From: Escherichia phage vB_Eco_BCPEco_001
Direction: 5' to 3' (one strand)
Length of the DNA: 64,000 nt
Sequence record: PV295200.1
Part shown: in pieces, positions 49,368-52,393 of the stretch
Layout: each line of letters opens with the position of its first letter
How positions within the stretch are numbered: the stretch's first letter is position 1
Notes under the pieces: model-generated
What the model saw: only the letters and a program-made list of their open reading frames with translations
What the model was told of the DNA's origin: nothing
Databases searched by the model: none
Made by a program: the position numbers and the translations under genes

Positions 49368-49853
49368 ATGATTACAGTAGATAAGTGGTTTAGAATTAAT
49401 CGTGCTGATACAGGGCTGTGTAATTACTGGCCGGAACTTAGTGCAGGTACTGTCTTTAAAGTTCGTGAACTTGCAAAAGAATGCGAAGATGATATAGAAC
49501 CTGATACTGGAATTATTGAAATTGAACTTTCCGACGGAAAGATTATTAACATCTATGATAAGCCAATTACATACTGGTGTTTGTGGAATACTGAATCCGT
49601 TGAAAATGGCGAAATCGAGGAAGTTGTAGAGCGAACTAATCAAGTTGTTCAGAAGCCTAAAGCCGCTTTTCAAGGTGAACGTATTTCATACGCATTAGCT
49701 AAATTAGCTGCGCAAGAAAATAACGATGGCTATGAAGGTAACCTGATGCAAGCTGCCGCAGAGTACATTGAATGGCTTGAAACTCAAATTTCTTTTTCTG
49801 ACCAAATGATTCGGCAATATAAGCGATTGCATCAAATGTTTTACAATACTTGA
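49368..49853 (+). CDS. pin: protease inhibitor Pin (Lon inhibitor)-like
   Basis: 161 aa from ATG at 49368 (track start 49350 is TTG); size and position between nrdC and gene 49 match T4 pin. Confidence 0.5.
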   Translation: MITVDKWFRINRADTGLCNYWPELSAGTVFKVRELAKECEDDIEPDTGIIEIELSDGKIINIYDKPITYWCLWNTESVENGEIEEVVERTNQVVQKPKAAFQGERISYALAKLAAQENNDGYEGNLMQAAAEYIEWLETQISFSDQMIRQYKRLHQMFYNT

Positions 49854-49889
49854 AAAAACTCAAAATTCTTTTTCTGACAGGACATTTTA

Positions 49890-50066
49890 ATGAAAACCGA
49901 ATTGGTTTATACTGAAAAGTTAAATGGCGGTAAGGTTTGGAAACTTTTTATTAAAGGACATTCTACGGACCCTCATATGACCACTTGCGTAGGAACCTAT
50001 TCTCGTCCTACTAAAAAGATGATTCGACAGTATAAACGATTGAATCAAATGTTTTACAATACTTAA
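49890..50066 (+). CDS. small ORF sharing its C-terminal 15 residues with Pin
   Basis: 58 aa; ends KKMIRQYKRLNQMFYNT versus Pin QMIRQYKRLHQMFYNT; arises from a local duplication. Confidence 0.35.
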   Translation: MKTELVYTEKLNGGKVWKLFIKGHSTDPHMTTCVGTYSRPTKKMIRQYKRLNQMFYNT

Positions 50067-50105
50067 ATAATAAATACCCTTATCTATTTAAGGTAAGGGT
50101 TTATT

Positions 50106-50579
50106 ATGTTATTGACTGGCAAATTATATAAAGAAGAAAAACAGAAATTTTATGATGCACAAAACGGTAAATGCTTAATTTGCCAACGTGAATTAAATCC
50201 TGATGTTCAAGCTAATCACCTCGATCATGACCATGAATTAAATGGACCAAAAGCAGGAAAGGTACGTGGATTGCTTTGTAATCTCTGCAATGCTGCAGAA
50301 GGTCAAATGAAGCACAAATTTAATCGTTCTGGCTTAAAGGGACAAGGTGTTGATTATCTTGAATGGTTAGAAAATTTACTTACTTACTTAAAATCCGATT
50401 ACACCCAAAATAATATTCACCCTAACTTTGTTGGAGATAAATCAAAGGAATTTTCTCGTTTAGGAAAAGAGGAAATGATGGCTGAGATGCTTCAAAGAGG
50501 ATTTGAATATAATGAATCTGACACTAAAACACAATTAATAGCTTCATTTAAGAAGCAGCTTAGAAAGAGTTTAAAATGA
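50106..50579 (+). CDS. 49: endonuclease VII (Holliday junction resolvase)
   Basis: 157 aa; zinc motif CLICQRELNPDVQANHLDHDHELNG...CNLCN. Confidence 0.9.
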   Translation: MLLTGKLYKEEKQKFYDAQNGKCLICQRELNPDVQANHLDHDHELNGPKAGKVRGLLCNLCNAAEGQMKHKFNRSGLKGQGVDYLEWLENLLTYLKSDYTQNNIHPNFVGDKSKEFSRLGKEEMMAEMLQRGFEYNESDTKTQLIASFKKQLRKSLK

Positions 50580-52393
50580 CAATTGAAAAAGAAATTGAAG
50601 GATTGATTCATAAAACTAATAAAGACCTTTTGAACGAGAATGCTAATAAAGATTCTCGTGTTTTTCCAACTCAACGGGACCTTATGGCTGGTATTGTGTC
50701 TAAGCACATTGCCAAAAATATGGTCCCGTCTTTTATTATGAAAGCGCATGAAAGCGGAATTATTCATTTCCATGATATTGATTATTCCCCTGCTCTTCCA
50801 TTTACTAATTGCTGTTTAGTAGATTTAAAAGGAATGCTTGAGAACGGATTTAAGCTCGGTAATGCACAGATTGAAACTCCTAAATCAATCGGTGTTGCTA
50901 CTGCAATTATGGCACAAATTACTGCGCAAGTTGCTTCCCATCAATATGGCGGAACGACTTTTGCGAATGTAGATAAAGTACTTTCTCCTTATGTTAAACG
51001 CACCTATGCAAAACATATCGAGGACGCAGAAAAATGGCAAATCGCTGATGCACTGAATTATGCTCAATCTAAAACAGAAAAAGATGTATACGATGCATTC
51101 CAAGCTTATGAATATGAAGTAAATACTCTCTTTAGTTCAAACGGACAAACGCCTTTTGTAACAATTACATTTGGTACGGGAACTGACTGGACTGAACGAA
51201 TGATTCAGAAAGCAATTCTGAAAAATCGTATTAAAGGTCTTGGTCGTGATGGGATAACTCCTATTTTCCCTAAGCTTGTTATGTTTGTTGAAGAAGGTGT
51301 TAATCTTTATAAAGACGATCCGAACTATGATATTAAGCAGCTTGCTCTAGAGTGTGCAAGCAAAAGAATGTATCCTGATATTATTTCAGCTAAGAACAAT
51401 AAAGCTATCACTGGTTCATCTATTCCTGTTTCTCCAATGGGTTGCCGTAGTTTCTTGAGCGTATGGAAAGATTCGACCGGTAATGAAATTCTTGATGGAC
51501 GTAATAATCTTGGTGTTGTAACACTGAATCTTCCTCGCATCGCGTTAGATTCTTATATTGGAACACAGTTCAATGAACAGAAATTTGTTGAATTATTCAA
51601 TGAACGAATGGATTTATGTTTTGAAGCTTTGATGTGTAGAATTAGTTCCTTAAAAGGAGTTAAAGCGACTGTTGCTCCTATTCTTTACCAAGAAGGTGCA
51701 TTCGGGGTTCGTCTTAAACCTGATGACGATATAATTGAGTTATTTAAAAATGGTAGAAGTTCAGTGTCCCTAGGATACATTGGTATTCACGAATTGAATA
51801 TTCTTGTCGGTCGTGATATTGGACGAGAAATTTTAACTAAAATGAATGCTCATCTTAAACAGTGGACTGAAAGAACCGGATTTGCTTTTAGTTTATATTC
51901 GACTCCTGCTGAAAACCTTTGTTATCGCTTCTGTAAACTCGATACAGAAAAATATGGAAGTGTAAAAGATGTTACCGATAAAGGTTGGTACACTAACAGT
52001 TTCCATGTTTCAGTAGAAGAAAATATTACTCCGTTTGAAAAGATTTCCCGCGAAGCACCATATCATTTCATTGCGACAGGTGGTCACATTTCTTATGTTG
52101 AACTTCCTGATATGAAAAATAACTTAAAAGGTCTTGAGGCCGTGTGGGATTATGCTGCACAACATTTAGATTATTTTGGTGTTAATATGCCAGTAGATAA
52201 ATGTTTTACATGCGGAAGTACCCATGAAATGACTCCTACTGAAAACGGATTTGTTTGTTCTATTTGTGGAGAAACTGATCCTAAAAAGATGAATACCATA
52301 AGAAGAACATGCGGCTATCTTGGAACTCCTAGCGTTGTTCCATGGAATTTAGGTAAAATGAAAGAAATGGTAAAACGAGTAAAACATGCATAG
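50576..52393 (+). CDS. nrdD: anaerobic ribonucleoside-triphosphate reductase (class III), uninterrupted
   Basis: 605 aa continuous ORF; C-terminal glycyl radical motif RRTCGYLG and Cys zinc ribbon CFTCGS...CSICG. Confidence 0.9.
   Translation: MTIEKEIEGLIHKTNKDLLNENANKDSRVFPTQRDLMAGIVSKHIAKNMVPSFIMKAHESGIIHFHDIDYSPALPFTNCCLVDLKGMLENGFKLGNAQIETPKSIGVATAIMAQITAQVASHQYGGTTFANVDKVLSPYVKRTYAKHIEDAEKWQIADALNYAQSKTEKDVYDAFQAYEYEVNTLFSSNGQTPFVTITFGTGTDWTERMIQKAILKNRIKGLGRDGITPIFPKLVMFVEEGVNLYKDDPNYDIKQLALECASKRMYPDIISAKNNKAITGSSIPVSPMGCRSFLSVWKDSTGNEILDGRNNLGVVTLNLPRIALDSYIGTQFNEQKFVELFNERMDLCFEALMCRISSLKGVKATVAPILYQEGAFGVRLKPDDDIIELFKNGRSSVSLGYIGIHELNILVGRDIGREILTKMNAHLKQWTERTGFAFSLYSTPAENLCYRFCKLDTEKYGSVKDVTDKGWYTNSFHVSVEENITPFEKISREAPYHFIATGGHISYVELPDMKNNLKGLEAVWDYAAQHLDYFGVNMPVDKCFTCGSTHEMTPTENGFVCSICGETDPKKMNTIRRTCGYLGTPSVVPWNLGKMKEMVKRVKHA

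Follow-up and report, generated by a model that had tools for sequence, protein, structure and literature searches.

The pin gene of bacteriophage T4 encodes PinA (MEROPS I24, PF10465), the phage inhibitor of the Lon protease that serves as the reference and remains in use as a reagent. Previous work has shown that T4 PinA inhibits both the ATPase activity and the proteolysis of Lon, and PinA has been reported to bind Lon, possibly sharing its site with HspQ (PMC8835725). The pin gene analyzed here encodes an orthologue with the same length, the same end and the same fused tail as T4 PinA, as opposed to the tail-less Pins of 148, 137 and 142-144 amino acid residues, which represent the ancestral and more widespread form. 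Downstream of pin lies a small gene of 58 codons (ORF58), which is the same gene, at the same site between pin and gene 49, as RB32ORF078c, RB69ORF087c and JS98 orf087c; it is already annotated (in RB32), and its family is in Pfam. The locus also resembles the boundary-deletion fusions and unequal-crossover duplications of the plastic regions of T4-type phages, in that a short deletion joins adjacent, translationally coupled ORFs in frame, a head-to-tail repeat stands at a short A-rich junction, and the repeat can collapse by homologous recombination (as in phage PST, see below). It differs from such events in that its two copies represent the deleted and the undeleted allelic states, so that the derived fusion and the ancestral gene are both kept. 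Mosaic evolution of this sort is ordinary for plastic T-even regions, and the locus is no new kind of system.

The window, that is, the whole stretch of 64,000 nucleotides that was analyzed, belongs to a Tequatrovirus of the RB32 type and shows ∼98% identity to Pinarejo, ZN18 and SHFML-11 over the region from pin through gene 49 to nrdD. The gene order on the plus strand is nrdC, three small ORFs, pin, the 58-aa ORF, gene 49 and nrdD. A direct-repeat search of the pin–49 region revealed two pairs of repeats in the order A, B, A′, 140 unique nucleotides, B′, hairpin and gene 49. A and A′ (49856-49878) match at 22 of 23 nt, B and B′ at 46 of 52 nt (88%), and the 140 nt between A′ and B′ (49879-50018) are without a copy in pin. 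Both the 21-nt exact core of B and the 23-nt A (with up to 3 mismatches) occur at two places only in the window, and the chance expectation for either repeat, obtained from 100 dinucleotide-preserving shuffles of the window, was 0.00 matches. When the repeats are set in register, copy 1 spans 49780-49855 (76 nt) and copy 2 spans 49856-50068 (213 nt, i.e., 76 + 137); the copies lie head to tail with one novel junction, located in the A-run, which is the arrangement of a tandem segmental duplication. The hairpin in front of gene 49 has, with its extension, a predicted stability of -17.9 kcal/mol (z = -4.2). It is identical or near-identical in T4, in the phages of state (i) (see below) and in JS09, JS10 and dhabil, and forms the right-hand homology common to all configurations of the locus. 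The first-pass annotation, made from the window alone, had described the recurrence of the pin 3′ end, its interruption by about 140 nt and the hairpin, and all three were borne out. The comparison with T4 that it proposed was carried out as well: T4 has no second copy and a pin–49 spacer of 41 nt, and the region does not align collinearly with it.

Table 1. Features of the pin–gene 49 region, with positions given in the window.
Feature	Position	Strand	Description
pin	49368-49853	+	161 aa; codons 1-146 native Pin, codons 147-161 assigned to the DUF7279 gene
Repeat A	49780-49802	+	native pin codons ...ETQISFSD, just before the fusion point; identical in T4 and unfused Pins
Fusion-junction codon	49803-49805	+	CAA in the window; CGA in T4 and unfused pins; 137-nt deletion immediately 3′
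Repeat B	49806-49857	+	Pin tail MIRQYKRLHQMFYNT, stop (49851-49853) and 4 A's
Copy 1/copy 2 illegitimate junction	49854-49859	+	within a run of six A's; window sequence ACTTGAAAAAACTCAAAA
pin 3′-end relic	49856-49890	+	35 nt; A′ (49856-49878) plus AGGACATTTTAA
ORF58	49890-50066	+	58 aa; intact DUF7279 / PHROG 3272 gene; small basic protein
Repeat B′	50019-50070	+	native DUF7279 gene 3′ end: helix residues 44-58 and TAA stop
Gene 49 upstream hairpin	50076-50100	+	10-bp stem; extension 50067-50107 pairs with the gene 49 start region
Gene 49 (endonuclease VII)	50106-50579	+	Pfam PF02945 and PF09124

The nrdD gene of T4 is split by a group I intron carrying I-TevII. In the window, nrdD (50576-52393) is a single uninterrupted ORF of 605 aa, and the phage thus lacks the nrdD intron of T4.

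ORF58 had been taken for a chimeric ORF created by the duplication, a view that the following results contradict. The protein matched Pfam DUF7279 (PF23945) with 56.9 bits against a cut-off of 24.5, residues 7-55 falling on profile positions 1-52 of 53, and PHROG 3272 with an E-value of 6.8e-32 (positions 1-58 of 59); it is therefore a full-length member of this family. Orthologues were detected by tblastn in 332 records of the phage collection and are distributed over four genera: Tequatrovirus, Dhakavirus (JS10, dhabil), Mosigvirus (JS09/RB69ORF087c) and Gelderlandvirus (S16). The small gene is located just upstream of gene 49 in these phages, except in S16, which is without pin and gene 49 at this site. 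The dN/dS ratio was 0.05-0.33 in 20 of 21 pairs, the remaining pair having only 4 differing sites, and the other two forward frames of ORF58 are full of stops; by this measure, ORF58 is under purifying selection and evolves as a protein-coding gene. In the AlphaFold2 model of ORF58 (pLDDT 79.5), strands are predicted at residues 2-9, 15-22 and 31-37, followed by a C-terminal helix at residues 42-56, and the segment common to ORF58 and Pin (residues 44-58) corresponds to this predicted helix. The first reading was right that the ORF shares the C-terminal 15 residues of Pin: the last 15 residues of ORF58 (MIRQYKRLNQMFYNT) and those of Pin (MIRQYKRLHQMFYNT) match at 14 of 15 positions. The motif RPTK+MIRQ[YF]KR.HR.FY is, in addition, kept at the C-terminus of the dhabil, JS10, JS09 and S16 orthologues, and the neighbouring Pins of these orthologues are without the motif. 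Judged from these alignments, the shared residues are the conserved C-terminus of the DUF7279 family itself. This very small family is limited to these phages; fold and sequence searches gave no functional lead for it, and a literature search on DUF7279, RB69ORF087c and RB32ORF078c found nothing.

ORF58 is 96.6% identical to the RB32 protein, whose GenBank note reads ‘similar to RB69ORF087c, JS98orf087c-like, pin’. It carries two unique C-terminal substitutions, H52N and R53Q, which are caused by adjacent nucleotide changes at 50040-50048 (CAT CGA to AAT CAA). None of the listed tblastn matches in the phage collection exceeded 96.6% (56/58), and the protein collection has no identical entry. 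A T4-type contig (L018, 1660-1668) has the AAT-CAA patch in its Pin tail as well, and the patch could be the product of a short gene conversion between repeat copies or of parallel mutation. In E. coli O157 typing phage 3 (L006, 1463-1641), the DUF7279 gene carries a 1-nt frameshift, and its annotation splits it into ORFs of 29 and 30 aa; this may be either a pseudogene or a sequencing error. Three large proteins (P0047, P0050 and P0051; 553-1089 aa) gave 4-7 matches each to the beta-strand part of DUF7279 (E 4e-7 to 8e-4), and these matches probably reflect a generic beta-hairpin repeat and not homology.

The profile matches of Pin point to the opposite direction of transfer. Pfam Inhibitor_I24 (PF10465) matched residues 4-141 of the window Pin with 164.2 bits against a cut-off of 27, and PHROG 2167 (Pin) covers residues 1-146, so that the Pin profiles stop at residue 141-146 and the 15-residue tail lies outside the family core. 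Residues 146-161 match positions 43-58 of PHROG 3272 instead. Two length classes of Tequatrovirus Pin were found in the large protein collection, one of 161 aa ending in ...SFSD[QR]MIRQYKRLHQMFYNT and one of 148 aa ending in ...SFSDRAF. Pins at 40-45% identity end in FSSKSF, FNAKSF or FSDRGF, the Mosigvirus JS09 Pin has 137 aa and ends in ...RRLS*, the Dhakavirus Pin fragment ends in ...FSDEVF*, and the tail is absent from all distant Pins; the 148-aa ending is therefore taken as ancestral and the tail as derived. The 161-aa Pin, that of T4 included, is accordingly the chimera, its tail coming from the neighbouring small gene. A literature search found no paper stating that the T4 PinA C-terminus is a graft from a neighbouring gene, the 1988 and 1998 PinA papers lying outside the search. 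T4 PinA is thus a natural fusion protein whose last 15 residues are the C-terminal helix of its neighbour, outside the Pin family. Tail-less 148-aa Pins and genomes with both the tail and the intact gene are in circulation and offer natural variants for mapping the action of PinA on Lon.

Three configurations of the locus were distinguished. In state (i), represented by SA20RB, G50, sb3, KNP5, ZCEC14, ZCEC15 and 236Ecol005PP, pin encodes 148 aa, its TAA stop shares an A with the ATG of the small gene (TAATG), the small gene is intact and there is no duplication. State (ii) is that of T4, whose sequence is that of KNP5 shortened by exactly 137 nt at a blunt junction: T4 reads CTGACCGA followed directly by ATGATTC, and KNP5 reads CTGACCGA, then GCGTTTTAATG...AAAAAG, then ATGATTC. 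The deletion takes the last two codons and the stop of pin together with the first 43 codons of the small gene; as 137 equals 2 modulo 3, the last 15 codons of the small gene enter the pin frame. The right side of the T4 locus (TGA AAATAATAAATACCC) is identical to that of G50. In state (iii), found in the window, in RB32 and in more than 100 others, the fused pin is followed by AACTCAAAATTCTTTTTCTGACAGGACATTTTAATG and then by the complete small gene. About 260 records are estimated to be T4-like (B only), and ∼180-190 Tequatrovirus records have the small gene, ∼120-130 in state (iii) and ∼50-60 in state (i); these counts are estimates from search summaries, the division between states (i) and (iii) being judged from tblastn identity bands, since junction-specific queries do not cleanly separate the two. 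Well over 100 complete genomes that were sequenced independently, RB32 and RB33 among them, show the same configuration and junction as the window, and an assembly or sequencing artefact, such as a mis-joined repeat, was rejected on this ground, its probability being negligible.

Copy 2 begins with what reads as the former end of a pin gene. Read in the old pin frame from 49858, it gives TQNSFSDRTF* with a stop whose last A also belongs to the ATG of ORF58 (TAATG). The 37 nt from 49856 to 49892 (the relic and the ATG) and the functional pin 3′ end of ZCEC14 are alike except for 1 nt. ZCEC14 is the closest undisrupted relative; its pin ends in ...DRAF* and has the same AGG codon, there still coding. 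A′ can thus be recognized as the relic of a functional pin 3′ end and not as a duplicated target, and no undisrupted donor with the exact relic (...DRTF*) ranked above the state-(iii) genomes. The AGGA at 49879-49882, 7 nt before the ATG of ORF58, is a candidate Shine-Dalgarno sequence. It would be the only plausible ribosome-binding site of ORF58, the translational coupling to pin now presumably being lost. No RNA structure was detected in the relic (z = +0.46), and no promoter-like site was found between pin and ORF58; the transcript of pin probably continues to serve for expression of the small gene, with the AGGA of the relic as its putative ribosome-binding site.

The first-pass annotation had interpreted the locus as a pin 3′ end duplicated around a 140-nt insert that made a new chimeric ORF, or as a small mobile gene inserted with duplication of its target. 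Compared with T4 alone, the locus does resemble a 213-nt insertion between repeats, and the likeness to a target-site duplication lies in the direct repeats that bracket a segment absent from T4. The repeats of the window are, however, 23 and 52 nt long, imperfect (22/23 and 46/52), and not placed at the two ends of one insert, and the upstream repeat runs on into a complete in-frame pin C-terminus with its stop. Searches of the insert against Pfam and PHROGs gave no match to a transposase, HNH or GIY-YIG gene, its only ORF being DUF7279, and the segment holds no transposase, homing endonuclease or integrase. The ORF belongs to a curated family of four genera, including phages with a tail-less Pin, and is under purifying selection; the state-(i) genomes have it without any duplication and, with the Mosigvirus, Dhakavirus and S16 orthologues, refute the insertion, which we consider extremely improbable. 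What stands of the original duplication reading is the duplication itself, its coordinates and its absence from T4; the direction of transfer and the consequence drawn from it do not.

The origin that we favour, with a probability of about 0.72, comprises two steps, a deletion that fused the genes and then a single illegitimate unequal crossover in which a T4-type genome and one of the ZCEC14 type were the partners. The ancestor would have had the arrangement of state (i), with a 148-aa pin ending in ...SFSDRAF*, a stop overlapping the 58-codon DUF7279 gene, and then the gene 49 hairpin. A blunt 137-nt deletion in a state-(i) genome of the CGA class would have produced the 161-aa fused Pin of state (ii). 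Subsequently, an illegitimate unequal crossover in the A-run just past the stop of the fused pin would have joined a T4-type genome to a state-(i) genome of the ZCEC14 type, entering the latter 35 nt upstream of the small-gene ATG. The product, state (iii), would contain two allelic forms of one segment head to tail, copy 1 being the deleted form with the fused pin end and copy 2 the dead pin 3′ relic with the intact small gene, and the repeats are still substrates for homologous recombination.

The two copies were compared with the candidate parents. Besides the single difference in the relic, the window differs from ZCEC14 at 2 of 129 nt in the part of the small gene before B′ and at 2 of 48 nt in B′. 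B differs from the small-gene tails of sb3 and KNP5 at 1 of 48 nt and from its own neighbour B′ at 5 of 48. B is thus nearer to sb3/KNP5 and B′ nearer to ZCEC14, so that the copies carry different lineage haplotypes, an argument of 3-4 informative sites in 48 nt that favours two parents. The fusion-junction codon (CGA in T4, CAA in the window) fits the CGA-class state-(i) phages, and the codon in the relic is AGG. Where all state-(iii) genomes examined have ACA and TAA, ZCEC14 still shows the ancestral GCA (Ala) and TGA, which identifies ZCEC14 as a representative of the donor lineage and not as a collapse product. According to the junction sequences, T4-type genomes read ACTTGAAAA followed by TAAT, ZCEC14 reads GCTTGA followed by AACTCAAAA, and the B/A′ join consists of ACTTGAAAA followed directly by AACTCAAAA; this junction does not vary among the state-(iii) genomes examined, RB32 included, and its constancy speaks for a single origin. 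It has six A's, three more than would result from a simple crossover in the shared CTTGAAA, and the proposed history explains the joining step only in part. The body of pin and gene 49 are uninformative about the parents, with 20 versus 19 and 11 versus 11 mismatches to the T4-type and the ZCEC14-type sequences, respectively. Given the high frequency of T-even recombination, the replacement of alleles in one copy at a later time could give the appearance of two parents.

A route within one lineage was also considered, in which a 213-nt tandem duplication arose in a state-(i) genome, copy 1 then suffered the 137-nt deletion to give state (iii), T4-type genomes arose by collapse, and alleles were exchanged later. 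Collapse of state (iii) to a T4-like state does happen (PST), the flanks name no two parents, T-even recombination is frequent enough to swap short patches, and the AAT-CAA patch of the window B′ recurs in the L018 pin tail. This route nevertheless needs three events and an allelic replacement in place of two events. It also has to accommodate that B has the sb3/KNP5 haplotype at all informative sites and B′ that of ZCEC14, and that the junction codon CGA and the TGA-AAAT right end of T4 fit state (i) of the RAF/CGA class and not the AGG-class relic; moreover, no genome with two full 213-nt copies was found among the best matches to the segment. We regard an origin within one lineage as rather unlikely. 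For the deletion followed by a crossover between two parents, it is the order of events and the single crossover that we infer, the three states, the exact deletion, the relic, the mismatch of B and B′ and a collapse product being read directly from the genomes. With all its intermediates extant, the locus is a traceable case in which translationally coupled phage genes fuse; an unequal crossover between allelic states can restore the lost gene with the fusion retained, and the repeats may later collapse.

Such a collapse was found in Yersinia phage PST, which has a fused pin and no small gene, and whose tail has the haplotype of B′ in full, with TAA and the 5-A run. PST is evidently a product of B/B′ collapse in a state-(iii) genome, and the T4-like state is therefore polyphyletic. 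In a Mosigvirus-like metagenomic contig (L011), a deletion between two ACGTTT microhomologies has joined pin in frame to the final 9 codons of its small gene (...EYLERR-FHRDFYNVY*), with gene 49 directly next; by its sequence, this tail fusion is independent of the T4-type fusion. Another contig (L012) has lost the small gene cleanly, its pin ending in ...RRLS*. The limits of such deletions, set by the gene 49 hairpin on the right and by pin on the left, may alone explain the recurrent capture of tails.

A second DUF7279 paralogue is present immediately upstream of pin in Mosigvirus-type phages (L004, 906-1076, JS09_097 / RB69ORF089c; L011, 2329-2499), so that pin is flanked by two members of the family. 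In L012 (2501-3076) and L013 (1510-2085, P0037), the upstream paralogue is fused in frame to the Pin N-terminus, giving a protein of 191 aa with both PF23945 and PF10465.

The tail might have been kept as a selected functional module, a helix with the ending ...LH.MFYN that binds Lon or another common partner; this would be compatible with the deletion and crossover favoured above. In-frame tail fusions arose twice independently (T4-type and L011), the adjacency of pin and DUF7279 is kept in three genera, Mosigvirus has its second paralogue across pin, and the tail end ...RLHQMFYNT loosely resembles ...KIHSNLYH of the Sul20 degron of Lon, in which the C-terminal Tyr19 and His20 contact the Lon N-domain and are needed for binding (PMC8087443). 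The resemblance amounts, however, to 2 of 9 identities and is not significant. L012 lost the gene without keeping the tail, many natural Pins are tail-less, and the right end of the deletion is constrained anyway, as the gene 49 hairpin must stay. The Pin-tail differences among T4, the window, RB32, L018 and PST (R/Q, Q/R, M/K and H/N versus one synonymous change) are mostly non-synonymous and look like relaxed constraint. In the AlphaFold2 model of Pin (pLDDT 69.7), the tail forms a low-confidence extension of the last helix; no Pin structure has an entry in the PDB. The variation and the model together suggest that the tail is under weak constraint in Pin, and a selected module is unlikely. 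More speculative still, and quite improbable, is the idea, drawn by analogy with the Sul20 degron of SulA, that the DUF7279 proteins are small binders of Lon, acting as decoys, adaptors or substrates and docking on its N-domain by an exposed C-terminus of the ...LH.MFYN type, and that the T4-type Pin, having captured this helix, would be a better or differently acting Lon inhibitor. If true, a Lon-docking helix would explain the adjacency of pin and DUF7279, the second paralogue of Mosigvirus and the two tail captures, and DUF7279 is flagged here as a candidate functional partner.

Further observations concern the remainder of Pin. The segment ENNDGYEGNLMQAAAEYI (window 49717-49780) is near-invariant even between Pins that are ∼45% identical, and in the one pair compared by eye (window versus JS09) the nucleotide differences within it look synonymous; its conservation suggests that it is probably the functional core of the Pin inhibitor. 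A 142-aa protein encoded on an ENA contig of 1494 nt (P0030) combines Pin residues 1-83 with a C-terminal part that belongs to Peptidase_S24 (PF00717); the contig being short, the protein may be a genuine fusion or a product of chimeric assembly. The Dhakavirus pin is fragmented (JS10, L003 1029-1504; dhabil, L010 1028-1201), with a 57-aa gene that holds only the C-terminal helical part of Pin. In JS10, this fragment is followed by a 100-aa ORF resembling the N-terminal beta domain of Pin (BLASTP E 1e-4), and the whole looks like a split, order-swapped pin.
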